DNA of 64,000 bases from Eledone cirrhosa (GCA_964016885.1 OZ024740.1:129580001-129644000), one strand, 5' to 3'. Shown: positions 13,887-64,000, counted from the stretch's first letter. The notes: generated by a model not told the origin, from the sequence alone. Numbers and translations are program-made.

Positions 13887-13938
13887 ATTAATTAATAATT
13901 ATTAATATTGTATTATTATTATTATTATTATTATTATT

Positions 13939-19072: not shown

Positions 19073-19139
19073 ATTATTATTATTATTATTATTATTGTTA
19101 CTATTATTATTACTTTATTTTCTTTTTTTTTCCCAATTC

Positions 19140-22100: not shown

Positions 22101-22727
22101 AACAACTCTTTTATGGAGAGTTAGTTAAAGGAAAACGACTGCCACATAAACCAAAAAAGAGGTATAAGGATTCCTTGAAAGCCTCTTTGAAAGACGCTAA
22201 CATCTCTGCTGATACATGGGAAAATATTGCTGCTGATCGTAATAATTGGAGAAAGACTGTATATGAGGGAAAAGTTGCCTTTAAGGCATCACGAATCGCA
22301 TACCAGAAAGTAAAGCGAGATGTGAGGAAGGGCATTGCTGTTACACTTCCAGATGGAGAGGGTCCTCCTATGGTGCTGACATGCAGCGTCTGTGCGAGAC
22401 TCTGGCTAAGCAGAGTTGGACTCGAAAGTCATCTTCGCAGTCATAAAGTAAGACCTGTGGTTGACTACCAGGCTGCTCTTGAAGATGCAACTCATCATGC
22501 TTGCCAAGCATGTGGTAGAGAATGTAAATCATCAGGAGGGTTCAAACAACATGCAAAAGTACATGAACTCCAACAACAGCCGGCTATTCCCAGTGAATGT
22601 TTTGGTTGGCGACTCTGTGCAAGACATTTTAGATCATTGGCTGGGCTAAAAAGCCACATTCGATCGCAGCGCTGTTAGTTGCTATCGTGTGTGTGTGTGT
22701 GTATAGATATGTTTGTGTGTGCGTGTT

Positions 22728-22788
<61 letters not shown>

Positions 22789-22868
22789 ATTATTATTGTT
22801 GTTGTTGTCGTTATTATTATTGTTGTTATTATGATTATTATTGTTATTAATATATATGTGTATATATA

Positions 22869-22965
<97 letters not shown>

Positions 22966-23020
22966 ATGTATTTTTTGTTCTCGTGCAATGGCCATACTCG
23001 ATAGCGAGGGGCAGCCATCA
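19140..23020 (+). mobile_element. RTE-clade LINE, decayed, single APE-RT ORF with C-terminal C2H2 fingers
   Basis: GCWNVRAL..RPERRTALVA.EL, ALSETR, NYRGISL, LPESQSGFR, GVKQGD..APTLF, LHADD, FVYLGS and RIPKQLFYGEL. A candidate 3' end atggccatactcgatagcgagggg precedes (TGTA)n. Confidence 0.92.
22687..22968. repeat. Compound (GT)n/(AT)n/(TAT)n microsatellite
   Basis: Direct inspection. Confidence 0.95.
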
Positions 23021-23640: not shown

Positions 23641-23709
23641 TATGAAGAGAGAAGAAACATTTAGATATAATTAGTAATAAAATGTATCATACCTAAACTG
23701 CTCCTAAAT

Positions 23710-24966: not shown

Positions 24967-25057
<91 letters not shown>

Positions 25058-40737: not shown

Positions 40738-40773
<36 letters not shown>

Positions 40774-41016
40774 TTTTCTTTATTAAGCACAAGGGTTTAC
40801 ATAAAGTAGACATTAAGGACAGTACAGGACAATACAGGACGGTACAAATGGGCTTTTCTGCGTGTAAAAAAAACAGAGGTTGAAATAAAATAACAAAGAA
40901 AAATTCCACAATAGGGGGGAGACTTCCGAGGGACATCTGTGGAGAAAGCCCATTAAAAGACCAAAGTGGCCCTGACCACCAGGGCAAGTGCCCTCTCCCA
41001 GTTTTCCACCTTTAAT

Positions 41017-44000
41017 TTACAGACACATACTCAGAGAAGGCCCATTCATTCGGGCCATACTTGCTTCTCTCACCCATCTTTCAACAAAATGCTGGGAAGA
41101 GAGCACTTCCCTCTCTACCCTGATTTTCCTTTTCAAATGAAATTTGAAAAAGTTAATCAGGGCATCACCGAAGAGGTAAGTGCTCGTCTTCAGCCCTTTC
41201 AAACGTGTCCACCATACTATCTCTTTCGCCATGGCCACCAGACAGATACAAACTGCCTGCCCTTCCCGGCTAAAGGAAGGGGGCGGGGCAATCCTCACGA
41301 TGGACTCAGCTGATAGCTGGATCCGTCCTACACGTGACAGCAGGTGTTCGACATAAACCCACAAGTCAGCAATGCTCGGAAACTGGACGAGTGCGTGCAG
41401 GACGGTTTCGTTGCCCTGCGCGCATCTCGGACATACCCGGCTGACGGCACCTCCATGACTGTAGAGTTTATCCCGAACTGGCAAAGCTCCTCGGTAGCAC
41501 TGCCAGGCCATGGATTTCTGGAAGTTGTCCATAGGCCCCGGCCCGAAAGTCCTTCCAAAGAGATTGGCTAGTTGATTTTCGTCGACGCCTAGAGTTTCTC
41601 CAAGTACGTCGTCGCTCTTCCCCTCCACTAATCCCCTATAGAACGCCAAGGTGGAGTTTCCACCGATCACATTGCCCGATCGGTCGAGGGCTGTGAGCGC
41701 CTGAAGACATTCCAGTCTCCAAGCGCTCCCTCTCGGTCTTCGCTTGACCCAGGACTGCAGCTCCGTCAAGGAGACGAGCTGGGGAAAAACGTGTCTAGCA
41801 AACGGCGACCACACCTGATCACCGTCGAGGAAGAGGTGGATATGTCGTAGCCTGAGCGTGTGTCTGCGCATCATCAGCCACGGCATGCCCAGCCCTCCAC
41901 GTAGCGGGAGTTGACAGCAGATGGACCGCCTGGCCATCGGAGCGCGTCCCTTCCACAAGAAGCGAAAGAGCAAACGCTCCAGCGCAGTCAGGCGGGGTTT
42001 AGGACAAGGTACGACGGTCAGGCGGTAGTATATGACGGACGCTATGTACGCGTTAGCCACCTCCGCTAGACCATTCAGGGATAGCTTTCTCTCGGCCAAT
42101 TTCTGGGTGAGAGAAGCCACCCTGCTCGTCACCACGTCCCAGTTTTTGTCCATCTGGAGGTCTGGACCGAACCAGACCCCTAGCAATTTAACCGGTCCGT
42201 CCGTCCAGCGCCCGACGACGCTGTTGGACGGCATGGACCTGCCTCTCCAGGTGCCGAGCTGCAGGCCCACTGACTTTTCCTGGTTGATCATTGCTCCTGT
42301 CACCGCTTCGTATTCTCTTAGTGTAGTGCCGATCGCCTCGATGTGTTTGGCGTTCGACACCACTACGGTGACATCGTCGGCATATACTGACACGGATCTT
42401 CCGCATCCTAGTTCGCGCGGGACCCCCCTCAACGTCTCCAGTTTGTGCAGTAATGGCTCGAGAGTCAATACGTACAATAGGAACGAGAGGGGACATCCTT
42501 GGCGGACCGAGCGCATGATGTTGAACGGTTCCGAAAGGTGACCGTTCACTCTCACTACAGAGCAGATGTCGCTGTGCATGGCAGCGATCCAGCCTCTGCA
42601 GAGGGGCCCAAAGCCAGCCGCCCTCAGGACTGCCGCTAGGTAACGATGGTCGACCCTATCGAAGGCTTTCGACTGATCTAAATTGATCAAAGACCCACCC
42701 GTGCCAGGTTCCCTAGCTACCCTCTCTACGATGTATCGCATGAGGTGGAGGTTGTCGTGGATGGATCTGTCGGGAATGGCGCATGTCTGTGCCTCTCCCA
42801 CCAGACCACCAACGACAAGCGCCAACCTCTTTGCTAGCACCTTGGCCAAAATCTTGAACTCTGTGTTTAGCAGAGTTATGGGCCTAAAATTATCTATGTT
42901 ATCCCCCTTGTTCGGATACTTTCTCAGCAGCGCCACCGCTCCTCGGCTCACAGAGCTGGGAATTCTCCCGTTCTGTTGCCAGTTGCAGTAGACGTCCGCC
43001 AAGAGGCCTCCGAACAAGTTTGGCATTTGTACGTAAAGTTCATAGGGCAGACCATCCAAACCAGGCGATTTACCCCTTGTGCAACTAGTAATTGCATCCC
43101 GTACTTCAGCGGTTGTTATCGGCTTTTCGCAACACTCCGCCTCAGTGGCCGAAAGCCGCGGCAGTCCGTCGAGGTAGACACTAAAGTCCATCCCTCGATC
43201 CGGCCCGCCACTGCCCCCGAACAGTTGAGCGAAGTGTCGCTGAAAAGCTTCACACATTTGCCCGGGTTCGAGTAGCATGCGCCCGTCGTGGTCCACCAAA
43301 GACCGGATCGTGGCTTTGTTGCCACGACGCGCCTCCGCCACTCGGGCCCGTTGAACGGCTTTCGTCCCCTCGTGTCTGAGAGCACGCACCCTAGCTCTGA
43401 CAACGCAGCCTTCGTGCTTTGCATTGTAGAATTGGTCAAGGGCCAATTTCGCCGCAAGTACGTCGGTCGCGATGCCTTTGCTAAGCGCCTCATCTAATTT
43501 TCTAACTAATTCTCCCTCTGCTCTATTTTTCTCTATTGCTAAAGTCTTACTAAACCTAATGGACTCTATTCTAATTGCTCTTTTCAGAGCAAACCACCAC
43601 TTGTTGTTGACGATGGCCCCCGTCAACGCCCGCTTAACTAGTTCGCTAATACGGTCTCTGTAGGCCTTGCGCGCTGGTAAGGACGCGTTTAGCTTCCAGT
43701 AGCCGGGTCCTCGTCTATGAAGCCTATCTAAGTGAAGTACACAGATCACGAATGTGTGGTCCGTGTAGCTGACTATCTTGAATTGTGGACAGCCTATGCT
43801 AGACCTATCTATTTCTCTACAACATACTCTATCTAGATATGATCTGGATGACCCTATGCGATTTGTCCAAGTCCACATTGGTACATTCGGGAAATCCATT
43901 CGGTACCTGTCAGACAGTTCAAAACGTCTGAGCAGGTTGGTGAGACTCTTTCACCCTCCTTCCCTATCCACTAATCCCACACAATCCCAGCGTGCATCTA

Positions 44001-44436
44001 AGATCCCGTTCCAGTCGCCCACTAACACTAAAGAGCGGGACGTTCCAAGAAAGGTCTCCAGACGCCGGAAGAAATCAGGCCGCCCTGCTCCTGTCGGGGC
44101 ATAGACGGCCACTAACCTGAAAGATTGGCTGTCTCCGCTGGTCACGTCCAGCACCACCAACTTACCTTCTGGGTCCAGGAAGATGGCCCGTATGGCAAGA
44201 TCCAAACCTCTCCGAAAAAGCACAGCAACTCCTCCCCCCGATCCCGGACGGCTGGGAGATGCGTACACATCGTTGCCGCCGAAGATCGGTGCGAAAGCCT
44301 GTGCTTCGGAGATTCTGGTCTCGCTGATGGCCACTACATCTATGTTTAGTGACCTGAGGTCGTTGAGCAGGTGGCCCTGCTTCCATGACGACCCCAAGCC
44401 ACGCGCATTTATGCTGCCTATTCTGAGCGAGGTCAT
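41017..44436 (-). pseudogene. Tx1 ORF2: APE endonuclease, reverse transcriptase and knuckle, with one in-frame stop
   Basis: ORFs 43951-44436 and 41017-43899 are in the same frame, split by TGA where copy T1 reads TGC (GCKSL). Motifs SINARG, SETR, GDWN, YLDR, KAFDRVDH, QGCPLS and YADD are present. Confidence 0.93.
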
Positions 44437-44470
44437 GTTGAAAAGGAGTGGAAAAGATGGGAAAGACCAC

Positions 44471-46628
44471 TTACCTTACTTCTCGTAGGGGAAGGACGGT
44501 TTTTCCATCCTTTTCACTGCTTGTGGCCTCCTCAGGAAGGATGTCCTTATAAATCATCATGGAGAGTGCTTGTCGGAAGTCTCCGATGTCTTTGGGGAAT
44601 TTTTGTTTTAGTGTCATGTACGTTCTCTGTGTGATGCGAGTGATTTGTATGTGTGGAGGTGGCGTGAATTTTGGGGTTGTTGTGTAGTCTTTTTCTGTGA
44701 TGCTGGTGTTGTGTTGGATGTAGTGTAATAATTGCTTGTTGTTCAAATTTAATTGTTTCTACTATTGGCACAAGGCCAGAAATTACCCAGTACATTACTG
44801 GTACTTTATTTTATCGACCCCGTAAGGATGAAAGGCAAAGTTAACCTCGGCGCGATTTGAACTCAGAATGGCAAGGGCCGTAACCCTATGCGTCAAAGCA
44901 TGGCGTCCGACCCTCTACCGATACTGCCAATCCCCCGATTTAATGCTGTGTAGTGTGTATCGTTTTGGTTGTTTTGTTTTGTTTGCGTTTGTTGTGGGTT
45001 TGTTTCTGTTTCGCATTTTGGTGACTTTTGTGGTGTAGGTGATGGTGGTGATGGGGTTAATGATGGTGATGGTGTTGGTGGGATTGGTGATGCTGGTGTG
45101 GATGGTGGCATATCTGTCCTAACTTTTTTGTTTCTTAATTTATTTGTTTCCCTCTGTATTTTGTTTTTGGAGGGGGAAGGAAGAGAATTTTTTCTTTTTT
45201 GGTTTCTTTTTTTTTCCGGATATCGTTTCCCACTCCTCGTCGTCACAATCTGTCTCCAGTTGTGATAGGCAGGGGAGTAGAAAATCCTCCACAGCCGTTA
45301 GTTTTCGTTGTGGCGTGGTGGATGGTGTAGGCGCTGGTGCTAGTTCTGAAGCGTTGGGTGGTGGTGGTGTTGGTTTTGCTGGTGGTGGTGGTGGTGTTGG
45401 TTTTGCTACTGTTGCTGGGGTTGTTGCTGTTATAGTTGCTTCTGTTGTTGCTGCTACAGTTGTTGCTGCCATCTCTGCTACTGGTGGTGTTGATGGTTGT
45501 GTCACTGGGGTGGGTAGGAGAGGTGGCCTCAACCTTTTAGCATGAGGGCAGGAAGCCCTTAGGTGGGTTCCTTCACCACAAACGACACACCTAGGCCTTC
45601 TGCCCTCGACAATTACCGTGAGGTGGCTGCCGTCAGTGAGGTCTATTACCTCTGGGATCTCCTCAATGTTTTTTTGGTCCGCTTGGATCAGGAGCTCCAT
45701 CCCAGATCCGGACCAGTTTTCCTGCTTTTCTTTTGCTATTGCTATTATCTTTGTGTTAGCTTCGATGCCAGCGAGGGCGGACGCTATTAGCCAGGGAATT
45801 TCGATGGCCGGTGGAACGTGGGTCACCCTGATCTTTACGAGTCTCTGGCCACAATAGCTTGGGACGAGTGTGAAGTCTTCACTTCTTAATGGGGTCATGG
45901 AGTGTTCTCTAGCCTCCTCTGGTGTTTCAAAGAACACGTCCACGGTTCCATACTTCTGCCCACGTCTGATGTGGGTTTTTCTTGCCAACACATGTCCCAA
46001 AGATTTTTGGATTTGGGACTCGGATGTCCGTTCCACTCGGCGCGATTTGACATTTATTGTTCGATACGACACGGTGCATAGGCGCCGATGCTCCATTTTA
46101 TTAGGTGGGGGTGAGGCTGACCCTGTACCCATCTTTCTTTACCATTTGTTTGGCATTTTCTAAATCCTCCTGAGTTACTGTAAATGCTTCGAACTGTTTT
46201 GCTACTCTGGCAAAACTCAGGGTGGTTTTTTTTATGTCATTGTTGTTGTTGTTGCTATCGTTATTTTTGTTATTATTAATTCTAGTTTCAGTTGTGGTGG
46301 TGGTGACGTCAGTGAAAGCTGGTTTGGGAGAGTCCATTTTGTTTGAAAATATTTCGACATCACGAGTTGATTTATTTTTTCCTTTTGTTTCTGTTGTCGC
46401 GGTGGTGGTGGGGGTGGTGGTTGTCGCGTAGGTGGTGGCGGCTTTAACACATGCATTCATTGGTAATGGCGGGAAATGAATGTCTGCCTGAGACAAATTT
46501 AAAATATTGCTAGTGCTTAAATCGTTTGTGTTGGAAGACGTATAATCATTTACAATGGTGGTGTCGGTGTGAGGTGTTAATTTGTGAGAAAGGCTTTCAG
46601 CTGCTTGGTGCAGTGGTGAATTAGCCAT
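44471..46628 (-). pseudogene. Tx1 ORF1 (gag-like, CCHC zinc knuckle, Pro/Thr-rich), frameshifted and SINE-interrupted
   Basis: CVVCGEGTHLRASC knuckle; pieces at 46101-46628, 45140-46132, 44893-45246 and 44471-44746. Confidence 0.85.
44754..44937 (-). mobile_element. tRNA-derived SINE nested in Tx1 ORF1, 7-bp TSD
   Basis: A box TGGCAGTATCGG and B box GAGTTCAAATC; atttaat is duplicated at 44747-44753 and 44938-44944. Confidence 0.94.
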
Positions 46629-46836
46629 TTTTTTTCAAAGAAATTTGTTGATAATCATAAAAGTTTATATTTTGGGCACAAGACCCCAATCTTTTTGGGT
46701 GTCCTTTTCGGAAAACAATGTATGTGCGCTTATATATAGTTAACAATAAACATTTTTCATAAGTGGCAATTTTTAACAAACGGAAATAACAAACCTTTGC
46801 GGAGCTCACGATAATACGATTTACTACGTAGGTCGC

Positions 46837-46886
<50 letters not shown>

Positions 46887-46889
46887 TAA

Positions 46890-46920
<31 letters not shown>

Positions 46921-46928
46921 AGTAATAA
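46837..46928. repeat. (TAA)n microsatellite between the 5' ends of the Tx1 and Dong-like elements
   Basis: Direct inspection. Confidence 0.97.
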
Positions 46929-49272
46929 GGGAAGAAGACGCACGAGGTGACGGAGGTCATGAAATCGCTCCCGTAAGTTTTGAATTTTTAACATATTTAA
47001 ATCATTTGTGAAATAACAACTCTTAGTACAAATGCTACGTAAAGCACCCGGCTTGAGCCCCAAAAAATTCGGACCCAAAATATATTGTTATAAGGCTCAA
47101 ATATTCAAATATTCAACTTTGTATTGTACACTGTATATCCAAAAAAGAAAATGGCTATAAATGGAAGAAGAACCCCCCCCCCCCTCCTCTCCTCTGTCTA
47201 CACTATATAGGACAGCCAAACTCACCAACACCAGAAACTAGATACACCACCCACCCCATCATCTGTGTACACTAAACACAACAGCCAGATAACGGCATTT
47301 TCACCTTCACCACCACCGCTCACTACGGCCATCATTACCACCACTATCCCATCACCGCCGCCACCACCCCTTCACTCCTTCACTGCTGCCACCGCTACAG
47401 CACCATCACTACAGTAATACGGTCACATCGCCGCCACCACTGCCTCGGTATCGACATCACCACCACCACTGTCTCAGTATCGCTACCGCCGCCAGTCTCC
47501 CACTTCTCCCTGCTGGCTGCTACTTCCACATTATAGAATTCCTACTACTAACAAAGAGGAAGGCATCAAAATGTATAGATAGACTCAAAAGAAAAAAGAA
47601 AAAACAAACAACAAAACCAAAGCAGCACAGCAACAACAGCAAAAACGAGAAAAACTAACAGAGAAAAACAAAAACAAAAAAAGAAACCCCCAAAACGTAA
47701 AGAAAATAAGAATGAAGAGAGAAGCAGGCGGACGGACAGAGAAGAGGGGGGAAAAACTAAAACTTAAAAAACAAAAACTAAGTCAGACATTCGAACACTA
47801 CATTACGATGAAACTTATGCTTATTCATTTTTGGGGCCCTTTCTGCCTGTGTGTTTGTTTGTTTATGTGTGTTCGTATACAGCGTGGTGATAATGCCACA
47901 CAAGGGCCAAGTGGGATGGCGGATCCACAGATGGCTATGTAACCATACATTCGCCAATCCTCGATAAGAGTGTTTAAATATCGAACATAAACAGTTCGAA
48001 TAACGGTGAAATGGAGACTAGAACGTCATGTGACAGACTCTCACCCAACAGGTGCCCCCTGGCTCAGCAGCAGGAACGTGATTGTCAACCAAATACTGCT
48101 GATGTTGGAGGAAGAAGAAGAAGGAAAGGGGCCAGAACCAACTGGACGAAAGAATTGAATAGAACTGTTATGCAATGCTACCTGAAAAGTAACCCCAAGG
48201 AGAGGGGCTACAGGAGACGGATGCATAACATCTGGAACGAGATTGGTCTATTTAAATTAGATGAACAAAAATTGGCCTGGCAGGCTCGGGTAATAAGAAC
48301 TAATGGGTGGATAAGCGAGATGGAACTGGAGGAACTGAGCAGAGAGAATGGCTTGGAGATGGCGGGTGTAGTATGCCAGACAAGCGAGCCAGTGGGAAAT
48401 GAAGGTGAAGAGGTCCTGAGAACGGAGGAACCACCCGAAGCAGACAATGATCTGAATACTGAGATAAATAATACCTGGAACAGAGATACGGCCACTGAGG
48501 AGATGAATGCTGACGGGCTAGGACAAGATTCGGTTGACATCCTAAATTTAGTGGTAGATGAATTGAACAATGATAGAGGGAGACCTATGAACCTAAGATT
48601 TGTAGACAGGAAAAAGTTAAAAGAAACAACAGCTAAGGTAAACAATGTCATCCCATACCTTGAGGTGAGGAGCCTTCACCAGTGCAACAATATCCTCAAA
48701 GCAACAGCAAATATGGTGAGTATAATACTTGGTATAAAAGCGAGAGGAAACAACAGACAAGAAAGAGCAGAGCCTTGGCGGAAGAAACGACTGAGTGGTC
48801 AAATCAGGGAAATGAGAAATGACATTGGAAATATTGAGTCCCTACTGAATGGGACACTAAAAAACATAGACACTAAAAATAGACTGGAAATAAAGTACAA
48901 AACTAGGAGGAAAAAGCTAAATATTATCATAGAGGAACTGAAGCAACGCATTGTAGTAAAGAGTGCAAAAATCAGGCGATACGAGAACAGAGTCAGTCAG
49001 TATAAACAGAAGTGAAAAGGATTTGGAACTGCCATGAAGTCAAAGTGATCCCGATTGTCATAGGCGCACTGGGGACTATCTCCAAAAGTTTCCAGGGATG
49101 GTTAAAGAAAATCGGCCCCTTCACGCTTTTTGGAACGCTTCAAAAGGCATGCTTGCTTGGAACAGCAAGAACCCTCCGATACGTCCTGAATATCTGAGGC
49201 TGCAGGTAGTGGCTTGATATTCATTCCAACGGACTTTCCAGTTAACCAACATCAATGACTGAGATTCAAGGA
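46929..49272 (+). mobile_element. R4/Dong-like element, family A copy A1: long leader, N-terminus, internal deletion, 3' end
   Basis: ORF 48011-49015 jumps at 49011/49012 to the last RLE codons (VKRIWNCHEV). About 2.2 kb is missing relative to copy A2. Confidence 0.92.
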
Positions 49273-49309
49273 ATAACAACAACAATAATAATAATGATAA
49301 TAATAATAA

Positions 49310-52300
49310 GGGGACATGAAACATGTGTCAGTGAAAACGAGGTAAACTGTAACACTTCGAGTCCCAGGGTTGGGGCGGAATCACTGGCAACAGAACAAAT
49401 TAAAGAAAGGATCGAAAAAGTGGAGGGAGTGCATGCTCAGGATGAAACTCCAAATGAAAATAATGAGATCGTAAATGATAAAGAAATGAATGAGAGTGAA
49501 CTTGCCAACTTGAAGGATGAAATTATGATCGAATGGATGAAAATGAAAGAATCTGACATGGGGCAACGAGACACTCTCCCTAAGATCCAGAACTCCAAAC
49601 AGAACCAAAAGATAATACACAAGACTAACATAATTGTCAAAAACATTATCATCACAAACAAACTAAACATTACTGATTTAAATCATCTCCATTATGCATC
49701 GGCTAAAGTCACCACTCACTTATGTGGAGTGAAGATGAAAAAACAAAGGAATTCCCACAAGAAATCTACATGGCAAGAGAACATCAATCGCCAAATAAAC
49801 CTTCTCCGATCTGACATAGAAATTTTAACAAACTATAAAGTAGGTGAACATGTTAGACAAACTAAACTTAAAAAATTGAAAAAAAAGTACAGTATAAAAT
49901 CAACATGTGACATAGACATGCTGATAGAAATAATCAAGCAAAAAGTGTCGACCAAAGCTGCTCGTATAAGGCGCTTTGAAAAACGATCTAGATTCTATAA
50001 GGACAATAATATGTTTAAAAACAACCAAAGAAACTTCTACAGAAAAATTGGTAGGTCAACAATAACTGCTAAATCAATACCACCCAAGGAGGAAGTGCAA
50101 GAATTCTGGGAAAAGCTCTGGGCCGAAGAAAAAGTTCATAACATACATGCCCCATGGATAGACAAATGAAAGATACAGCTCACCTTGAGGAACAAACATG
50201 GGAGAATATAACAGTTGAACAGTTGCGCTTGGCTCTAAGAAAAACCAGCAAATGGAAATCCCCAGGAAAAGACAAAATACAAAACTTTTGGATAAATGCC
50301 TTCACAGAGTCTCATGAGCTGTTAGCCCAACTTTACAATGAAATAGTTAAGGAGCCAGAAACGATACCTTCATGGCTAGTTAACGGCATTACATTCCTGC
50401 TTCCGAAGAATGATGAGACAAACAATCCCAAAAATTACAGACCTATAACTTGCTTGACCACAATGTATAACATTTTAACATCAGTCCTAACTGAATACAC
50501 ATATGACTACCTGATAACAAATGACCTATTTCCCATTGAGCAGAAAGGGTGTAAACGAGGCTCATATGGCTGTATGGATCAGCTTCTGGTTAACAAAATG
50601 ATACTGGGAGATTGTCATAATAGACACAAAAAACTATCGATTGCTTGGATAGATTATAAAAAAGCATTTGATAGTTTGCCACACAGTTGTATTGAAAAAT
50701 GTTTAGAGATTTTCAAAGTATCCCCCGTTGTCAGAAGGTTTTTGTCATTCAGTATGAAGACATGGAAAACGACACTCCTTTTGAATAGTGAAACAAAATC
50801 ACTGGAAGCTGGAGAAGTTAATATTAATTGTGGAATTTTTCAGGGTGACTCTTTACCACCGCTTTTATTCTGCATCGCACTTATACCATTAAGTAAAATG
50901 CTCAATAAAACAAAACATGGATATAAAGTCTATGACAAAACCATTAATCACCTGTTCTACATGGATGACCTGAAACTATTTGCAAAAAATGATGAACAAT
51001 TGCAAGGGCTATTATCCACTGTGAATCAGTTCAGTGATGACATTAAAACGGAGTTTGGACTAGATAAATGCGCCAAAGCAACGTTCACCAGAGGAAAGCT
51101 GCTGAAGAGTTCAGACATTAATCTTGATCGGGGGAACGTGATAAGAGAACTTGATCAAGAAAAAACTTACAAATATCTAGGTGTTTGCGAAGGAGACAGA
51201 ATCAAGCACTCGACAATGAGGGAAAGGATAAGGAAGGAGTGTTACCGCAGAGTAAGAGCAATCTTAAGAACGGAATTGAATGCAAGGAATAGGATCGATG
51301 CCATAAACACGCTTGCCATACCAGTAGTAACCTACAGTTATAATGTCATCAACTGGTCAAGCACAGAGGTCCGTAGGCTCGATACAAAAATTCGAAAATT
51401 CTTAACCATGCACAGAATGCATCACCCTAAAGCAGATATAGATAGAATATATCTCCCTAGGAAAGAAGGAGGACGTGGGTTAATCCAGTTAGACATTGCG
51501 TTGAAAACTGCAACAATTGGATTATATACATATCTAAGGGAATCACATGATTGGATGATCAATCTCGTTTTGAAACAAGAAAGCATCAAAAGATCATATT
51601 CCATTACAAAAGATGCACAAAGATACAGTAATGGACTACACATTTCAGAAGTCCCATTTACTGCTGAAATGGAAAACACAGAAAAAGCAAAGCAGGTAAA
51701 AGTAACTGCAAAGAAAGAACTGCTTCAGAAACTGGCTAAGAAATGGCAAGAAAAGCCTCTGTATGGAAAATACCCAGAGCGAGCTAACAATCCTGATGTT
51801 GACAAAACTTTAACCCATCAGTGGTTGGCATCCTCTGGACTGAAATCGGAGACTGAAGGACTGATTATATCCGCACAAGATCAATGTCTGCTAACAAAAA
51901 ATTACCAAGCCAACATAATAAAAAATGGGTGCAGCCCATTATGCCGTGTATGCAAAACACAACCAGAGACCATTGACCATATAATTTCAATGTGCAGTCC
52001 TATAGCTCCAACCGAATACCTAAACAGGCATGACAGAGCTGCACAATACATACATTGGATAATGTGTAAGCATTTTGACATGCCCCATCAAAAGAATTGG
52101 TGGGAGCATCAACCACCTCCCATACTTGAAAAAGATAACATCTCAATCTTGTGGAACTTTAGCATCCAAACAGACCGAAAAATAGATGCAAACAGACCTG
52201 ATATAATATTGAAAGACTTTCAAAAGAGGGTATGCCTGCTAATTGATATGTCTGTTCCAATAGACAAGAATGTATCTATAAAAACATTTGAAAAATTGAG

Positions 52301-52646
52301 CAAGTATAAGGACCTGGAGATAGAAATGGGAAAAATGTGGAAATTGAGAACTAAAACAAGAGCAGTGGTTGTAGGCGCTCTGGGAATGATACCTAAGGGG
52401 TCTAATGATTACATATCGCAAATCCCAGGAAACCCGCGTATAGGAGAAATACAAAAGATAGTACTAATGGGAACTGCCCATATACTAAGGAAGATTTTGT
52501 CAATATAAGTACATCACAAGTCTAAACACTAAAGATGCATGTGTGAATATGTATGTTCTTTCTTGAACATGGCGGACCTTGTCTCTTGAGGTCACTGGTT
52601 GTGACTTGGTGATAACTCGTATGAACATAAAGCAAGATAAATGCAA
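49310..52646 (+). mobile_element. R4/Dong-like element, family B copy B1 (5'-truncated, 4-bp frameshift near 50160)
   Basis: RT (WKSPGKD, YRPITCL, IDYKKAFD, GIFQGDSL, YMDD), CRVC..H..C knuckle, RHD and the RPDI..D..K endonuclease. (TAA)n on both sides. Confidence 0.95.
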
Positions 52647-52669
52647 CTGTAATAATAATAATAAGAAGA

Positions 52670-55600
52670 ATGGAGATGGAGGGTGGAGTATGCCAGGCAA
52701 GCGAGCCAGTGGGAAATGAAGGTGAAGAGGTCGAGAGAACGGAGGAACCACCCGAAGCAGACAATGATCTGAATACTGAGATAAATAATACCTGGAACAG
52801 AGATACGGCCACTGAGGAGATGAATGCTGACGGGCTAGGACAAGATTCGGTTGACATCCTAAATTTAGTGGTAGATGAATTGAACAATGATAGTGGGAGA
52901 CCTATGAACCTAAGATTTGTAGACAGGAAAAAGTTAAAAGAAACAACAGCTAAGGTAAACAAAGTCATCCCATACCTTGAGGCGAGGAGCCTTCACCAGT
53001 GCAACAATATCCTCAGAGCAACAGCAAATACGGTGGGTTGAGGGGGGGGAAGGGGGGGGGGGGAGGGGGGGGAACTACTTGGTATGAAAGCGAGAGGAAA
53101 CAACAGACAAGAAAGAGCAGAGCCGTGGTGGAAGAAGCGACTGAGTGGGCAAATCGGGGAAATGAGAAATGACATAGGAAAGCTTGAGTCACTACTGAAT
53201 GGGACACTAAAAAACATAGGCACTAAAAATAGACTGGAAATAAAATACAAAACTAGGAGTAAAAGGCTAAATATTATCATAGAGGAATTGAAGCAACGCA
53301 TTGTAGCAAAGAGTGCAAAAATCAGGCGATACGAGAACAGAGTCAGTCAGTATAAACAGAACCGCATGTTCGACAACAACCAGAAGATGCTGTTTGGACA
53401 GCTTGAGGGCAAAGAAAGAGGCAACGACTTGATCCCTGAGGCGGAACAAACTAAAACATTCTGGAGAGGAATATGGGAGCAGGATGTTAGACACAATGCC
53501 CAGGCAGGGTGGATTGAGACAGTACAGAGGGAGATCGGTGAGCAGGCACAGCAACAGACTGATTTGAGTATCACAGTTGAAACTCTTAAGGGGCAAGCCA
53601 AAAAACTAACCAACTGGAAATCACCAGGCCCAGATGGTGTGCAGGGGTATTGGATTAAACATTTAACATCCCTCCACCCGAAGCTGACGGCCATGTTCAA
53701 TGACTGCTTGGTGTCGGGTGAGGTGCCAGATTGGTTGACAAAAGGTACCACAGTTCTGATAATGAAAGTCCGAATCAAGGGTAATGATGCTAGCAACTAT
53801 AGACCTATCACATGTCTTCCCGTAATGTGGAAACTGTTGACGAGCATTGTGTCTGAGGAAATCTACCATCACCTCCACACAAACAACTTGTTACCGGACG
53901 AACAGAAAGGATGCCGAAAGAAGTCACGTGGTACAAAGGACCAGTTACTTATTGATAAGATGGTAATGGGGAATTGCAGGAGGAGACACACTGATCTTGC
54001 CATGGGATGGATAGACTACAGAAAGGCATTTGACATGGTGCCTCATTCCTGGATCACCAAAAGCCTGGAGATCTTCAGGGTGGCAGATAACATCAGACAG
54101 TTGCTAGGCAGGAGTATGGGGTCCTGGGAGACAGAGTTGACATCAACTGGAGTATCCTTGGGAAGCGTGAAGATCAAGAGAGGTATCTTCCAGGGAGATA
54201 GCCTGTCCCCTCTGTTGTTTGTCCTTGCCCTGATGCCCCTGACCATTATGCTGCGAAAAGTGAGAGCAGGATACAAGTTGGGAAGGGGAGAGCTTACCAT
54301 CAATCACCTCCTCTTCATGGACGATCTTAAGCTCTTCGGGAAAAGTGAGAAGGAGTTGGATGTGCTTGTTGACACTGTCCGTATTTTCAGCAGTGATATA
54401 TGTATGCAGTTTGGTATTGGTAAATGTGGAGTCATTGTGATGAAGAGGGGTAGGTTGAGCAGAAGTAACGGGATCCAGATACCAACAGGTGAGATGATAA
54501 AGGAAATTGACTCTGAGGAAGGATACAAGTATTTGGGCGTTCTGGAGGCTGATGGCATAAAGAACAAAAAAATGAAGGAATTGTTAAGAACTGAATACAT
54601 TCGGAGAGTAAGGAGCGTATTGAAGTCACATCTGAACAGCAGAAATGCCATAAGCGCAGTAAATTCCCGAGCTGTGTCTATTATTAGGTACAGTGCGGGA
54701 ATTCTGAGATGGAATGTTGCTGAACAAAAAGAAATGGATAGGAAACTAGGAAGCTATTGACTATCTACAACATGTTCCACAAGAGGAGTGATGTCGATAG
54801 ACTCTACCTAAGGAGATCTGAGGGTGGAAGAGGTCTTATCAGCATAGAGGACTGTGTTCAGATGGAGAAAAACAACCTATACAAATACGTGACCTATAGT
54901 AAGGAGCCAATACTCAGAACTGTACTGAAGGAGGGGACAGTAGGCCAGGGGATGTCCAGGGAGGAAATAACATCAAGGAGGAAGAGCAGCCTTAAGGGAA
55001 AATCCCTTCATAGTACCTTCTTTGAGAAAACTGAATTTAGAGATCCACAGACATGGAACTGGTTGAGAAGAGGAGACCTCAAAAAGGCTACAGAAGGAAT
55101 GCTAATGGCTGCGCAGGAGCAGGCCCTCAAAACAAAGTGGTTGAAGCACCATATCTACAAGGAGGAGGCTAGCCCACTGTGCAGGATCTGTGGAGAGAGA
55201 GAGGAGACTGTGGCTCATATTGTGTCCGAGTGTAAACACCTAGCCCAGACCCACTATAAGGGCTGGAGACACGATGTGATGGGCAGGGTGATCCACTGGC
55301 ACCTGTGCAAAGTAAACAATCTACCACATTCTGAGAAATGGTATGAGCATAGGCCAGAGGCGGTGATGGAGAACAATCAGGTGAAGGTGCTGTGGGATTT
55401 TAGGATACAGACGGACAAAAAACTGGAACACAATAGACCTGACCTGGTGGTTGTGGACAAAGAAAAAAGATCGTGCCTCATTGTGGATGTGGCCTGCCCT
55501 TTCGACACGAGAGTGCAAGAGAAGGAGAGGGAGAAAATTAACCGATACCAGGACCTAAAGTGGGAGGTGAAAAGGATTTGGAACTGCCATGAAGTCAAAG

Positions 55601-55827
55601 TGATCCCGATTGTCATAGGCGCACTGGGGACTATCTCCAAAAGTTTCCAGGGATGGTTAAAGAAAATCGGCCCCTTCACGCTTTTTGGAACGCTTCAAAA
55701 GGCATGCTTGCTTGGAACAGCAAGAACCCTCCGATACGTCCAGAATATCTAAGGCTGCAGGTAGTGGCTTGATATTCAATCCAACGGACTTTCCAGTTAA
55801 CCAACATCAATGACTGAGATTCAAGGA
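52670..55827 (+). mobile_element. R4/Dong-like element, family A copy A2 (5'-truncated, RT present, two disruptions)
   Basis: FMDDLKLF, GIFQGDSLSPLLF, CRICG..H..C and RPDLV..D..K. A G-run insertion lies near 53040 and a 1-bp deletion near 54748. Confidence 0.95.
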
Positions 55828-55865
55828 ATAACAATAACAATAATAATAATAATAATAAAAATGAA

Positions 55866-57654
55866 GGGAAGAAGACGCTCGAGGTGGTAGAAGGTCATGA
55901 AATCGCTCCCGTAAGTTTTGAATTTTTAGCATATTTAAATCATTTGTAAAATAACAACTCTTAGTACAAATGCTACATAAAGCATCCGGCTTGAGCCCCA
56001 CAAAAATTTGGACCCAAAATATATTGTTATAAGACTCAAATATTCAAATATTCAACTTTGTATTGTACATTGTATATTCAAAAAAGAAAATGGCTATAAA
56101 TGGAAGAGGAAGAACTCCCCCCTCCTCTGTCTACACTATATAAAACAGCTAAACAACACCAATCTCACCAACACCAGAAACTGGATACACCACCTACCCC
56201 ACCAGCTCTCTGTGTACACTAAACACAACAGCCAGATAACGGCAATTTCACCACCACCACAACCAATCTCAACATAATAATGATAATAATAAATACTATT
56301 ATTATTGTCCCAAGTTTTAACAAGATGTTTAATCCCAACATTAAGGGAATTTATGTCAACACATATACGACTAACCCCATAAATTCACCGAACGGACATC
56401 AGTAACAACAACGCCGCCCATCCATCATTACTACCACTATCCCATCACCGCCGCCACCTCTCCTTCATTGCTACTACCGCTACAACACCATCACTACAGT
56501 AATACACATCACCACCACCAATGTCTCAGTATCGCTACCACCGCTATTCTCTCCCATTGCTTCCTGCTAGTTGCTGCCACCACATTATTGAATTCCTACT
56601 AAAAAAGAGGAAGGCATCAAAATATATAGATAGAGTCAAAAGAAAAAAGAAAAAAACAAACATCAAAACCAAAGCAGCACAGCAACAACAGCAAAAAAAG
56701 AGAAAAACAAAAACAAAAAATAAACGTAAAGAAAATAAGAATGAAGAGAGAAACAAGCGGACGGACAGAGAAGAGAAGGGAACAACTAAGTCAGACATTC
56801 GAACACTACATTACAATGAAACTTATGCTTATTCATTTTTGGGGGTTTTTCTGCCTGTGTGTTTGTCTGTTTGTTTGATTCGTCTACAGCGTGGTGATGA
56901 TGCCACACAAGAGCCAAGTGGAGCGGCGCAACCACCGGAGACGGTGAATCCACAGATGGGTATGTAACCATACATTCGCCAATCCTCGATAAAAGTGTTT
57001 CAATATCGAACCTAAACAGTTCGTATACCGGTGAAATGGAGACTAGAACGCCATGTGACAGACTCTCCCCCAACAGGTGCTCCCTGGCTCAGCAGCAGGA
57101 ACCTGGCTGTCAACCAAATACTGATGGTGTCGGAGGAAGAAGAAGAAGGAAAGGGACCAGAACCAACTGGACGAAAGAATTGAATAGAACTGTTATGCAA
57201 TGTTACCTGAAAAGTAACCCCAAGGAGAGGGTCTATAGGAGACGGATGCATAACATCTGGAACGAGATTGGTCTATTTAAATTAGATGAACAAATATTGG
57301 CCGGGCAGGCTCGGATAATAAGAACTAATGGGTGGATAAGCGAGCTGGAACTGGAGGAACTGAGCAGAGAGATTAGCTTGGAGATGGAGAGTGGAGTATG
57401 CCAGGCAAACGAGCCAGTGGGAAATGAAGGTGAAGAGGTCGAGAGAACGGAGGTACCACCCGAAGCAGACAATGTTCTGTATACTGAGATAAATAATTCC
57501 TGGAACGCTTTTTGGAACGCTTCAAAAGGCATGCTTGCTGGGAACAGCAAGAACCCTCCAATACGTCCTGAATATCTGAGGCTGCAGGTAGTGGCTTGAT
57601 ATTCATTCCAACGGACTCTCCGGTTAACTAACATCAATGACTGAGATTCAAGGA
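55866..57654 (+). mobile_element. R4/Dong-like element, family A copy A3 (leader, about 155 codons, then 3' end)
   Basis: Same 5' start as A1. The junction tggaAC/gctttttgg near 57505 removes about 2.9 kb. Confidence 0.92.
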
Positions 57655-57662
57655 ATAGTAAC

Positions 57663-57696
<34 letters not shown>

Positions 57697-57702
<6 letters not shown>

Positions 57703-58143
57703 TTGAAGGACTTTCAAAGGAGGGTATGCCTGCTAATTGATATGTCTGTTCCAATAGACAAGAATGTATCTATAAAAACATTTGAAAAATTGAGCAAGTA
57801 TAAGGACCTGGAGATAGAAATTGGAAAAATGTGGAAATTGAGAACTAAAACAATACCAGTGGTTGTAGGCGCTCTGGGAATGATACCTAAGGGGTCTAAC
57901 GACTACTTATCGCAAATCCCAGGAAACCCGCGTATAGGAGAAATACAAAAGATAGTACTAATGGGAACTGCCCATATACTAAGGAAGATCCTGTCAATAT
58001 AAGTACATCACAAGTCTAAACACTAAGGATGCATGTGTGAATATGTGTGTTCTTTCTTGAACATGGCGGACCTTGTTGTCTCTTGAGGTCACTGGTTGTG
58101 ACTTGGTGATAACTCGTATAAACATAAAGCAAGATAAATGCAA
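57697..58143 (+). mobile_element. R4/Dong-like family B copy B2 (short 3' fragment)
   Basis: Matches 52203-52646; flanked by (TAA)n. Confidence 0.95.
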
Positions 58144-58158
58144 ATAATAATAATAATA

Positions 58159-61100
58159 GAAAAGAAATGAATGAGAATGAACTTGCCAACTTGAAGGATG
58201 AAATTATGATCGAATGGATGAAAATGAAAGAATCTGACATGGGGGAACGAGACACCCTCCCTAAGATCCAGAACTCCAAACAGAACCAAAAGATAATACA
58301 CAAGACTAACATAACTCTCAAAAACATTATCATCACAAACAGACTAAGCATTACTGACTTAAATCATCTCTATTATGCATCGGCTAAAGTCACCACTCAC
58401 TTATGTGGAGTGAAGATGAAAAAACAAAGGAATTCCCACAAGAAATCTACTTGGCAAGATAACATCAATCGCCAAATAAACCTTCTCCGATCTGACATAG
58501 AAATTTTAACAAACTATAAAGTAGGTGAACATGTTAAACAAACTAAACTTAGAAAATTGAAAAAAAAGTACAGTATAAGATCAACATGTGACATAGACAT
58601 GCTGATAGAAACAATCAAGCAAAAAGTGTCGGCCAAAGCTGCTCGTATAAGGCGCTTTGAAAAACGATCTAGATTCTATAAGGACAATAATATGTTCAAA
58701 AACAACCAAAGAAACTTCTACAGAAAAATTGGTAAGTCAACAATAACTGCTAAATCAATACCACCCAAGGAGGAAGTGCAAGAATTCTGGGAAAAGATCT
58801 GGGCCGAAGAAAAAGTTCATAACATACATGCCCCATGGATAGACAGACAAATGAAAGAAACAGCTCACCTTGAAGAACAAACATGGGAAAATATAACAGT
58901 TGAACAGCTGCGCTTGGCTCTAAGAAAAACCAGCAAATGGAAATCCCCAGGAAAAGACAAAATACAAAACTTTTGGATAAATGCCTTCACAGAGTCTCAT
59001 GAGCTGTTAGCCCAACTTTACAATGAAATAGTTAAGGAGCCAGAAAAGATACCATCATGGCTAGTTAACGGCATTACATTCCTGCTACCGAAGAATGATG
59101 AGACAAACAATCCCAAACATTACAGACCGATAACCTGCTTGACCACAATGTATAAAATTTTCACATCAGTCCTAACTGAATACACATATGACCACCTGAT
59201 AACAAATGACCTATTTCCCATTGAGCAGAAAGGGTGTAAACGAGGCTCATATGGCTGTAAGGATCAGCTTCTGGTTAACAAAATGATACTGGAAGATTGT
59301 CATAATAGACACAAAAATCTATCGATTGCTTGGATAGATTATAAAAAAGCATTTGATAGTTTGCCACACAGTTGGATTGAAAAATGTTTAGAGATTTTCA
59401 AAATATCCCCCGTTATCAGGAGGTTTTTGTCATTCAGTATGAGGACATGGAGAACGACACTCCTTTTGAATAGTGAAACAAAATCACTGGAAGCTGGAGA
59501 AGTTAACATTAATTGTGGAATTTTTCAGTGTGACTCTTTATCATCGCTTTTATTCTGCATCGCACTTATACCATTAAGTAAAATGCTCAATGAAACAAAA
59601 CATGGATATAGAGTCTATGACAAAACCATTAATCACCTGTTCTACATGGATGACCTGAAACTATTTGCAAAAAATGATGAACAATTGCAAGGGCTATTAT
59701 CCACTGTGAAGCAGTTCAGTGATGACATTAAAATGGAGTTTGGACTGGATAAATGCGCCAAAGCAACGTTCACCAGAGGAAAGCTGCTGAAGAGTTCAGA
59801 CATTAATCTTGATCGGGGGAACGTGATAAGAGAGCTTGATCAAGAACAAACTTACAAATATCTAGGTGTTTGTGAAGGAGACGGAATCAAGCACTCGACA
59901 ATGAGGGAAAGGATAAGGAAGGAATGTTACCGCAGAGTCAGAGCAATCTTAAGAACGGAATTGAATGCAAGGAATAGGATCGATGCCATAAACACGCTTA
60001 CCATACCAGTAGTAAACTACAGTTACAATGTCATCAACTGGTCAAGCACAGAGATCCGTAGGCTCGATACAAAAATTCGAAAATTCTTAACCATGCACAG
60101 AATGCATCACCCTAAGGCAGATGTAGATAGAATATATCTCCCTAGGAAAGAAGGAGGACGTGGGTTAATCCAGTTAGACATTGCGTTGAAAACTGCAACA
60201 ATTGGATTATCCACATATCTAAGCGAATCACATGCTTGGATGATCAAACTCGTTTTGAAACACGAAAGCACCAAAAGATCATATTCCATTACAAAAGATG
60301 CACGAAGATACAGTAATGGACTACAAATTTCAGAAGTCCCATTTACTGCTGAAATGGAAAACACAGAAAAAGCAAAGCAGGTAAAAGTAACTGCAAAGAA
60401 AGAACTGCTACAGAAACTGGCTAAGAAATGGCAAGAAAAGCCTCTGTATGGAAAATACCCAGAGCGAGCTAACAATCCTGATGTTGACAAAACTTTAACC
60501 CATCAGTGGTTGGCATCCTCTGGACTGAAATCGGAGACTGAAGGACTGATTATATCCGCACAAGATCAGTGTCTGCCAACAAAAAATTACCAAGCCAACA
60601 TAATAAAAAATGGGTGCAGCCCATTATGCCGTGTATGCAAAAAACAACCAGAGACCATTGACCATATAATTTCAATGTGCAGTCCTATAGCTCCAACCGA
60701 ATACCTAAACAGGCATGACAGAGCTGCACAATACATACATTGGATAATGTGTAAGCATTTTGACCTGCCCCATTAAAAGAATTGGTGGGAGCATCAACCA
60801 CCTCCCATACTTGAAAAAGATCACATCTCAATCTTGTGGAACTTTAGCATCCAAACAGACCGAAAAATAGATGCAATTAGACCTGATATAATATTGAAGG
60901 ACTTTCAAAGGAGGGTATGCCTGCTAATTGATATGTCTGTTCCAATAGACAAGAATGTATCTATAAAAACATTTGAAAAATTGAGCAAGTATAAGGACCT
61001 GGAGACAGAAATTGGAAAAATGTGGAAATTGAGAACTAAAACAATACCAGTGAAAGAGCAGTGGTTGTAGTCGCTCTGGGAATGATACCTAAGTGGTCTA

Positions 61101-61345
61101 ACGACTACTTATCGCAAATCCCAGGAAACCCGCGTATAGGAGAAATACAAAAGATAGTACTAATGGGAACTGCCCATATACTAAGGAAGATCCTGTCAAT
61201 ATAAGTACATCACAAGTCTAAACACTAAGGATGCATGTGTGAATATGTGTGTTCTTTCTTGAACATGGCGGACCTTGTTGTCTCTTGAGGTCACTGGTTG
61301 TGACTTGGTGATAACTCGTATAAACATAAAGCAAGATAAATGCAA
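58159..61345 (+). mobile_element. R4/Dong-like family B copy B3 (5'-truncated, nonsense codon at 60774)
   Basis: 869-aa ORF collinear with B1; CAA has become TAA at 60774, and a small insertion lies near 61050. Confidence 0.95.
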
Positions 61346-61369
61346 ATAATAATAATAATAATAATAATA

Positions 61370-61542
61370 ATGGTTAAAGAAAATCGGCCCCGTCACGCTT
61401 TTTGGAACGCTTCAAAAAGCATGCTTGCTGGGAACAACAAGAACCCTCCGATACGTCCTGAATATCTGAGGCTGCAGATAGTGGCTTGATATTCATTCCA
61501 ACTGACTTTTCAGTTAACCAACATCAATGACTGAGATTCAAG

Positions 61543-61544
<2 letters not shown>
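61370..61544 (+). mobile_element. R4/Dong-like family A copy A4 (short 3' fragment)
   Basis: Matches 55653-55827; flanked by (TAA)n. Confidence 0.93.
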
Positions 61545-61598
<54 letters not shown>

Positions 61599-61613
61599 TT
61601 AATAATAATAATA

Positions 61614-64000
61614 AAAAAAAAAAAAAAAACGAGAAAAACAAACAGGGAAAAACAAAAACAAAAAAAGAAACCCCAAAAACGTAAAGAAAATAAGAATGAA
61701 GAGAGAAGCAGGCGGACGGACAGAGAAGAGGGGGGAAAAAGTAAAACTTAAAAAACAAAAACTAAGTCAGACATTCGAATACTACATTACAATGAAACTT
61801 ATGCTTATTCATTTTTGGGGCCCTTTCTGCCCGTGTGTTTGTTTGTTTATGTGTGTCCGTATACAGCGTGGTGATAATGCCACACAAGGGCCAAGTGGGA
61901 TGGCGGATCCACAGATGGCTATGTAAACATACGTTCGCCAATCCTCGATAAGAGTGTTTAAATATCGAACATAAACAGTTCGAATAACGGTGAAATGGAG
62001 ACTAGAACGTCATGTGACAGACTCTCACCCAACAGGTGCCCCCTGGCTCAGCAGCAGGAACCTGACTGTCAACCAAATACTGCTGATGTTGGAGGGAGAA
62101 GAAGAAGGAAAGGGGCCAGAACCAACTGGACGAAAGAATTGAATAGAACTGTTATGCAATGCTACCTGAAAAGTAACCCCAAGGAGAGGGGCTACAGGAG
62201 ACGGATGCATAACATCTGGAACGAGATTGGTTTATTTAAATTAGATGAACAAAAATTGGCCGGGCAGGCTCGGGTAATAAGAACTAATGGGTGGATAAGC
62301 GAGCTGGAACTGGAGGAACTGAGCAGAGAGAATGGCTTGGAGATGGCGGGTGTAGTATGCCAGACAAGCGAGCCGGCGGGAAATGAAGGTGAGGAGGTCC
62401 TGAGAACGGAGGAACCACCCGAAGCAGACAATGATCTGAATACTGAGATAAATAATACCTGGAACAGTGATACGGCCACTGAGGAGATGAATGCTGACGG
62501 GCTGGGACAAGATTCGGTTGACATCCTAAATTTAGTGGTAGATGAGTTGAACAATGATAGTGGGAGACCTATGAACCTAAGATTTGTAGACAGGAAAAAG
62601 TTAAAAGAAACAACAGCTAAGGTAAACAAAGTCAACCCATACCTTGAGGCGAGGAGTCTTCACCAGTGCAACAATATCCTCAAAGCAACAGCAAATACGG
62701 TGAGGAAACTACTTGGTATAAAAGCGAGAGGAAACAACAGACAAGAAAGAGCAGAGCCGTGGTGGAAGAAGCGACTGAGTGGGCAAATCGGGGAAATGAG
62801 AAATGACATAGGAAAGCTTGAGTCACTACTGAATGGGACACTAAAAAACATAGGCACTAAAAATAGACTGGAAATAAAATACAAAACTAGGAGTAAAAAG
62901 CTAAATATTATCATAGAGGAATTGAAGCAACGCATTGTAGCAAAGAGTGCCAAAATCAGGCGATACGAGAACAGAGTCAGTCAGTATAAACAGAACCGCA
63001 TGTTCGACAACAACCAGAAGATGCTGTTTGGACAGCTTGAGGGGAAAGAAAGAGGCAACGACTTGATCCCTGGGGCGGAACAAGCTAAAACATTCTGGAG
63101 AGGAATATGGGAGCAGGATGTTAGACACAATGCCAAGGCAGGGTGGATTGAGACAGTACAGAGGGATATCGGTGAGCAGGCACAACTACAGACTGATTTG
63201 AGTATCACAGTTGAAACTCTTAAGGGGCAAGCCAAAAAACTAACCAACTGGAAATCACCAGGCCCAGATGGTGTGCAGGGGTATTGGATTAAACATTTAA
63301 CATCCCTCCACCCGAAGCTGACGGCCATGTTCAATGACTGCTTGGTGTCGGGTGAGGTGCCAGAGTGGTTGACAAAAGGTACCACAGTTCTGATAATGAA
63401 AGACCGAAGCAGGATCTGTGGAGAGAGAGAGGAGATTGTGGCCCACATTGTGTCCGAGTGTAAACACCTAGCCCAGACCCACTATAAGGGCTGGAGACAC
63501 GATGTGATGGGCAGGGTGATCCACTGGCACCTGTGCAAAGTAAACAATCTACCACATTCTGAGAAATGGTATGAGCATAGGCCAGAGGCGGTGATGGAGA
63601 ACAGTCAGGTGAAGGTGCTGTGGGATTTTAGGATACAGACGGACAAAAAACTGGAACACAATAGACCTGACCTGGTGGTTGTGGACAAAGAAAAAAGATC
63701 GTGCCTGATTGTGGATGTGGCCTGCCCGTTCGACACGAGAGTGCAAGAGAAGGAGAGGGAGAAAATTAACCGATACCAGGACCTAAAGTGGGAGGTGAAA
63801 AGGATTTGGAACTGCCATGAAGTCAAAGTGATCCCGATTGTCATAGGCGCACTGGGGACTATCTCCAAAGGTTTTCAGGGATGGTTAAAGAAAATCGGCC
63901 CCTTCACGCTTTTTGGAACGCTTCAAAAGGCATGCTTGCTTGGAACGGCAAGAACCCTCCGATACGTCCTGAATATCTGAGGCTGCAGGTAGTGGCTTGA
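61614..64000 (+). mobile_element. R4/Dong-like family A copy A5 (partial leader, RT deleted in frame; runs to the window edge)
   Basis: Leader matches 47640-48010, followed by a continuous ORF and the family A 3' UTR. Confidence 0.93.
61995..63980 (+). CDS. 661-aa RT-less protein: putative Myb-like N-terminal domain fused to partial knuckle and PD-(D/E)xK endonuclease
   Basis: Open from ATG to TGA. TTVLIMKDRS is joined to RICGEREE, so the whole RT core seen in A2 is absent. Expression is unknown. Confidence 0.6.
   Translation: METRTSCDRLSPNRCPLAQQQEPDCQPNTADVGGRRRRKGARTNWTKELNRTVMQCYLKSNPKERGYRRRMHNIWNEIGLFKLDEQKLAGQARVIRTNGWISELELEELSRENGLEMAGVVCQTSEPAGNEGEEVLRTEEPPEADNDLNTEINNTWNSDTATEEMNADGLGQDSVDILNLVVDELNNDSGRPMNLRFVDRKKLKETTAKVNKVNPYLEARSLHQCNNILKATANTVRKLLGIKARGNNRQERAEPWWKKRLSGQIGEMRNDIGKLESLLNGTLKNIGTKNRLEIKYKTRSKKLNIIIEELKQRIVAKSAKIRRYENRVSQYKQNRMFDNNQKMLFGQLEGKERGNDLIPGAEQAKTFWRGIWEQDVRHNAKAGWIETVQRDIGEQAQLQTDLSITVETLKGQAKKLTNWKSPGPDGVQGYWIKHLTSLHPKLTAMFNDCLVSGEVPEWLTKGTTVLIMKDRSRICGEREEIVAHIVSECKHLAQTHYKGWRHDVMGRVIHWHLCKVNNLPHSEKWYEHRPEAVMENSQVKVLWDFRIQTDKKLEHNRPDLVVVDKEKRSCLIVDVACPFDTRVQEKEREKINRYQDLKWEVKRIWNCHEVKVIPIVIGALGTISKGFQGWLKKIGPFTLFGTLQKACLLGTARTLRYVLNI

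Follow-up and report, generated by a model that had tools for sequence, protein, structure and literature searches.

A head-to-head pair of LINEs on one microsatellite

How do two long interspersed elements (LINEs) with unrelated endonucleases come to lie head-to-head across a single microsatellite? The question is raised by positions 40,738 to 49,272 of a 64,000-nucleotide stretch of the Eledone cirrhosa genome (GCA_964016885.1 OZ024740.1:129580001-129644000; the whole stretch is referred to as the window). Here one 92-bp (TAA)n tract (46837-46928) separates the heads of T2, a full-length, defective Tx1-like LINE of the apurinic/apyrimidinic endonuclease (APE) type (40773..46836, minus strand), and A1, a Dong-like LINE of the restriction-like endonuclease (RLE) type (46929..49283, plus strand). 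The original prediction, made from the sequence of the window, had described this pair and put forward a (TTA)n-specific Tx1 lineage that uses the Dong target in the opposite orientation, with the adjacent 5′ ends as a possible divergent promoter. We find that the antiparallel sharing of one microsatellite by two LINEs is confirmed genome-wide, so that an (ATT)n-specific APE LINE lineage and a target shared with Dong in opposite orientation both stand, while the divergent promoter is unsupported. We propose, with a probability of about 0.8, that this APE lineage is (ATT)n-specific and antiparallel to the Dong RLE lineage, that the two prime on opposite strands, and that the specificity is set by the endonuclease.

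T2 is organized as a 5′ untranslated region (UTR), a short open reading frame (ORF), ORF1 with a CX2CX4HX4C knuckle, and ORF2 with APE, reverse transcriptase (RT) and zinc finger domains, and ends in a (TAA)n tract (40736-40772) that is its (ATT)n 3′ tail or target. ORF2 (41017..44436, minus) is 96.8% identical to a natural intact copy at locus L183, and its only in-frame stop lies inside the APE domain (43951-43953, minus). A1 has an intact head and an internal deletion of about 2.2 kb that includes the RT, and is the first unit of a head-to-tail Dong-like train that reaches the window end, the A and B copies of which (49310..64000, plus) are mostly truncated and joined by (TAA)n. The degraded T1 (13939..19071, plus; ~70% identical to T2), with tracts at 13911-13938 and 19072-19112, represents another (ATT)n-flanked family in the T2 lineage, and a T2-family 3′ fragment with 89% identity to T2 lies at 13770..13886 (plus). 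As predicted, both long Tx1 copies have (TTA)n at both ends in their own sense, the Dong-like elements have (TAA)n in theirs, and the 13770 fragment has ATT-rich flanks; an 8-nt duplication, ATTAATTA, was also found on each side of this fragment (13759-13766 and 13887-13894). Relative to the ATT strand of the window tracts, Dong-like flanks run antisense in 15/15 cases and Tx1-like flanks sense in 5/5.

Flanks of the element families across the genome

The microsatellite flanks seen in the window recur throughout the 3.0-Gb genome. The exact 18-nt head of the T2 family occurs 1790 times, and at least four perfect ATT units lie directly upstream in 1617 of these, while (ATT)4 ending within 5 nt is found at 0.098% of positions in a background of 600 kb of unselected DNA from six arbitrary places. 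This survey of 5′ flanks had been set beforehand as the test that could refute the lineage's specificity, and TTA enrichment is what it found. A pattern with two ATT units and one base less on the element side occurs 1720 times. With a query that lacked the tract, T2-family heads follow (ATT)n directly at all 30 sampled loci (the 30 best of 40 scored from 2803 candidates, which include the window itself and two near-identical duplicates), and T2-family tails are (ATT)n at 30/30 loci, one with just two units. T1-family heads likewise follow (ATT)n in 30/30 (2051 candidates), and in the control, heads of RTE-type LINEs, (ATT)3 is absent from the preceding 45 nt at 30/30 loci.

Among 65 full-length T2-family copies, picked by their end motifs alone, the 5′ tracts range from 12 to 136 nt and are at least 12 nt in 65/65, the right-hand tracts are at least 12 nt in 62/65, and the 5′ junction is uniform, with TATT directly before the element in 64/65. 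Microsatellite specificity has been called where the target repeat is present in >20% of flanks (PMC4494074), a level far exceeded by 1617/1790 heads, 65/65 left flanks and 62/65 right flanks.

The tract is present before insertion

A (TTA)n run might be a templated 3′ tail only, and that reading fails because 1617/1790 heads have at least four ATT units upstream and because empty sites can be seen in paralogues. Both T1 and the 13770 fragment lie inside the 5′ UTR of an RTE-type LINE (13475..23020, plus) whose (ATT)n tract is their target. In 30 paralogues of this 5′ UTR the tract is bare in 22 and holds a Tx1-like copy in five, a reverse Dong in one and a SINE (short interspersed element) in two; the five Tx1-like fills, the window among them, are all in ATT sense, and L133 and L142, two of the five, probably go back to a single insertion that was duplicated. 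At L094 the insertion is likewise in the tract of an RTE 3′ UTR, and its empty paralogous site also places the repeat before the insertion. An automated search for empty sites gave a match for 30 of the 65 full-length copies, mostly trivial neighbor pairs, self-hits and low-complexity sequence, and only L094 and L070 were used from it. At L170, a 14-nt duplication starts in the tract and extends into non-repeat DNA. As this RTE family has (ATT)n tracts in both UTRs, its copies distribute sites in which Tx1-like, Dong-like and SINE elements can land.

Opposite polarities and a proposed mechanism

When orientation is scored on the ATT strand, the two LINE types separate almost completely. In the 47 tracts of the unselected 600 kb, Dong flanks are antisense in 35/35, Tx1-like flanks sense in 7/8 and SINE flanks sense in 8/8; in the 317 tracts of the targeted loci, the corresponding values are 141/142, 234/237 and 64/67. 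In target-primed reverse transcription the primer strand is the strand opposite the RNA, and on this basis opposite-strand nicking is inferred, of the TAA strand by the APE and of the TTA strand by the RLE. We propose that the Tx1-like lineage would enter (ATT)n in its own sense and the Dong-like lineage the same tracts as (TAA)n, with copying likely primed from these two nicks. An insertion would likely split the tract and make it longer, so that new target flanks the element at either end, and for this reason neighbors of the same family are expected head-to-tail and mixed neighbors only head-to-head or tail-to-tail. The T2/A1 pair would be one such mixed junction. The specificity itself is likely seated in the endonuclease.

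Sister families and the endonuclease

Close relatives that use a different repeat bear on where the specificity lies. Among relatives with 66-72% DNA identity that lie in the unselected blocks, eight of the nine ends shown bear (ATCT)n tails, and a tenth sister-family end is ATT-tailed. In one sister family 21/25 heads follow (TATC)3 or longer and 0/25 follow ATT; in a second, some true heads follow TATC runs, the query for this family having begun inside the element, so that its 1/25 is no test of the junction. Throughout T1, T2 and the TATC group, RT identity is 0.71-0.76, and APE identity is ~0.70 between T1 and T2 versus 0.55-0.60 to the TATC group (one frameshifted copy is lower). A variable endonuclease loop aligns with the L1 betaB6-betaB5 hairpin; its sequence is N-R-I-G-S-S in almost every ATT copy, where TATC copies have N/K/H-R/C/H/L-S/R-G-T/Q/S. 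Tx1L is guided by the specificity of its APE, and the loop contacts DNA (PMC1950540). A separate observation is a large group of unnamed ORF2 relatives in ENA assemblies (P0006-P0097; ~40% identity) that have longer or different hairpin loops.

The best tree has the TATC group nested beside T1, and a T1+T2 clade is borderline in a constrained test (approximately unbiased, or AU, p of 0.060 for whole ORF2, 0.034 without the APE and 0.36 for the APE alone), so that ATT is probably ancestral. Close relatives with different targets, together with intact natural copies, make the determinant of specificity open to assay; recognition of microsatellites by APE-type LINEs has been called poorly understood (PMC3812793). 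We lean, by a small margin, toward a broader account in which an APE lineage reached the Dong microsatellite by convergence, using the opposite strand, and later, within octopods, exchanged (ATT)n for (TATC)n, the changes falling mainly in the endonuclease. The ATT and TATC families would then be a close natural pair (RT ~75% identical) for the study of APE target choice, and the two enzymes and a SINE passenger would jointly breed the (TAA)n tracts and LINE stacks of this genome.

Evidence against the proposal and alternative explanations

Several points weigh against an (ATT)n-specific, endonuclease-directed APE lineage. The first comes from truncated copies. The 112 ATT-tailed 3′ ends comprise the 65 full-length copies, 29 rows of truncated copies and 18 that extend past their locus or fail to align, and from the 29 rows one duplicate, four members of a subfamily that differs in its 5′ half and five with other Tx1 sequence upstream were dropped. 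Just eight of the 19 remaining 5′-truncated copies have at least two ATT units at the junction (the background for this score is 2.7%); in two ATT lies up to 10 nt away, and nine have none. Second, since tail and target are the same sequence, the register of the nick and most target duplications are unreadable. Third, when the Tx1L loop was grafted onto the L1 endonuclease the specificity was not transferred (PMC1950540), and so the loop difference described above is a correlate only.

The truncated copies bear on the best-surviving alternative, in which the element itself is the source of much of its 5′ tract, either because its RNA starts upstream in (AUU)n or because the RT slips at the 5′ junction; the endonuclease would then need a short ATT or AT-rich seed, and polarity would come from pairing of the RNA tail. 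It would account for the flanking of full-length copies by ATT at ~100% as against about half of the truncated ones, for the uniform 5′ junction, and for the imperfect ATTAATT seed in which the 13770 fragment lies. What speaks against it is that a long tract is already in place in 22/30 empty paralogous sites, and that in 48 of the 65 copies the left flank is the end of another element (Dong, SINE or Tx1) with a tract of its own. Moreover, eight of the nine ATT-less truncated copies have an RTE tract, a SINE or the end of a Dong copy directly on their 3′ side, which, with internal deletions being common in T2-family copies, fits insertion into a tract with deletion of its 5′ side. We regard a self-made tract as unlikely. 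The subfamily set aside above, with members at L164, L166, L189 and L286 (C28 block 85690), has a T2-type ORF2 behind another kind of 5′ half; the junction, immediately upstream of ORF2, is shared by its members, which points to an exchange of ORF1 and 5′ UTR.

The divergent promoter, in which the adjacent T2 and A1 heads are a selected unit, is less probable still. Both heads are intact, and Dong-A, T1 and the TATC family have a common short head motif ending in GTAAG that may be an internal promoter signal. Silkworm Dong is freed from read-through RNA by a ribozyme (PMC3774820). At the heads studied here there was no Rfam match and no stable fold, and a crude pattern for a hepatitis delta virus (HDV)-like core gave no P3/L3 candidate in five heads, the Dong-B start among them being provisional; internal promoters are possible since no ribozyme like that of silkworm Dong was found. 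Yet both T2 and A1 are defective, and of the 65 full-length copies 21 have Dong at their 5′ end, head-to-head, and 19 at their 3′ end, tail-to-tail, with an intact Dong head in just four of the 21. A further 14 exact head pairs of the T2 family and Dong-A, with spacers of 12-42 nt, show that the T2/A1 pair is not special. This part of the prediction is thus unsupported, and the head-to-head arrangement looks like a by-product of the opposite polarities; the pair itself is ordinary.

A search of sequencing runs gave no RNA run that shared more than 5% of the words. Both families are present in two other organisms (four read runs classed as DNA or unknown), and in these four runs no joint or empty T2/A1 allele was found, the tract itself being skipped. 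A scan for sigma-70 promoters was at the level of shuffled sequence, with a bacterial model that is irrelevant for an animal. The head motif has the form CGCTC..GTAAG, lies ~30-45 nt from the start and resembles a splice donor; it is present in 29/30 Dong-A, 24/30 T1 and 25/25 TATC-family heads, for example at 46929-46985 (+) and 13939-13985 (+) in the window and at L257:4953-5000, and T2 is without the exact motif. It may be a shared promoter signal or reflect 5′ UTR exchange between unrelated clades.

Passive enrichment, that is, non-specific insertion with preferential survival or assembly in microsatellite-rich, gene-poor DNA, has very little probability: the genome is rich in simple repeats and elements pile up in arrays, but it explains neither the base-precise junctions, the strand polarity nor the different microsatellites of sister families, and RTE heads in the same DNA are without ATT.

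Classification and relation to known systems

The antiparallel pair can be placed as follows. T2 ORF2 matches PF03372 (APE) and PF00078 (RT), and the closest solved structures are L1 ORF2p and L1 EN (PDB 8sxt, 1vyb and 2v0r), with an E value of 8e-41 versus 4e-20 for R2. An ORF2 with an N-terminal APE and an L1-like RT is a feature of the Tx1 clade, as is a separate ORF1 with a CCHC knuckle. The intact natural relative at L183 has CX2CX4HX4C in its 511-aa ORF1, as does T2, and T2 ORF1 has no Pfam match. From these sequence features we infer that the lineage, which is Tx1-like, probably belongs to the Tx1 clade. The nearest named relatives of T2 ORF2 come from octopods, namely Argonauta (67%, hypothetical protein) and Octopus sinensis, and a hypothetical protein from Patella is at 29%; a metagenome scan for relatives found none.

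On the RLE side, L269 is an intact natural copy of Dong-like B with a 1216-aa ORF that has CX2C..H..C and PD..D..K motifs and matches R2 structures only, via its C-terminal part. A single ORF with RT followed by CCHC and a restriction-like endonuclease, as in L269 (A1 itself is without the RT), and (TAA)n in sense, seen in 29/30 Dong-A heads (some of the loci being duplicates) and in the 35/35 unselected flanks, are what is known of Dong. Dong, DongAg, DongBg and the Darwinula Dong of the R4 clade likewise have a single ORF with RT, C-terminal CCHC and PD..D..K, and sense (TAA)n at both ends (PMC3812793, PMC7998251, PMC3774820); unlike these, the copies here share tracts with an APE element, have a 5′ region of ~1 kb and show no HDV-like core by the crude pattern. 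Another family with a long ORF (1174 aa; L177:4465-7299 and L249:2802-6323) is probably a third Dong-like lineage.

Targets of Waldo, Mino, Kibi, Koshi and Dong are given in PMC3812793. Kibi in (TC)n, Koshi in (TTC)n and crocodilian Tx1 families in (TTCC)n/(TTTC)n (PMC4494074, PMC3812793) are, like the T2 lineage, APE-type LINEs of the L1 group that are microsatellite-specific, with related families using different units; the present lineage differs in its (ATT)n target, its (TATC)n sisters, its octopod-like host, its thousands of copies and a target shared with an RLE element. In human L1, by comparison, the consensus, TTTT/AA, is loose and the tail is poly(A), as against the (ATT)n tail and strict flanks of the T2 lineage (PMC1950540). 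A known parallel to the pair is TRAS and SART in (TTAGG)n, likewise two LINE groups in one tandem repeat, in opposite orientation and in mixed arrays (PMC10088271, where Tx1-1_ACar is given as a telomere-specific Tx1). Both TRAS and SART belong to the R1 clade, use an APE and lie at telomeres, whereas the present pair combines an APE with an unrelated RLE on a dispersed microsatellite.

What is new is the target, the kind of element being known, together with the convergence with Dong; since the RLE is unrelated to the APE and acts on the opposite strand of one and the same duplex, this would be a clean case of convergence. No ATT-specific Tx1 was found in the literature searched, with Repbase and the supplements of PMC4494074, which may list one, lying outside its scope. 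In the parts consulted, PMC3812793, PMC4494074, PMC3774820, PMC7998251, PMC1950540, PMC10088271, PMC4640811, PMC13282606, PMC8967140, PMC9115989 and PMC11203168 give no (ATT)n- or (TATC)n-specific Tx1 and no APE/RLE pair on one microsatellite. Dong-R4 and L1-Tx1 elements are described as abundant and recently active in octopod genomes, in the parts seen without target analysis (PMC13282606, PMC8967140), and the antiparallel use of one tract may explain how LINEs come to be densely stacked, and TAA repeats to build up, in these genomes.

Other features of the window

A copy of an abundant SINE, the 3′ end of which resembles the Tx1-like tail, is inserted in T2 (44747..44931, minus), other members of the T2 family being without it. 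Heads of this SINE have (ATT)3 nearby in just 6/46 cases and (ATT)2 in 26/46, and the SINE is likely a passenger with looser targeting. Two long inverted repeats each adjoin a (TA)n tract, one at 23635-25112 (533 bp at 99%) and one at 37643-38389 (277 bp at 90%), and several long (ACT)n/(GCT)n arrays lie at 1208-4117.

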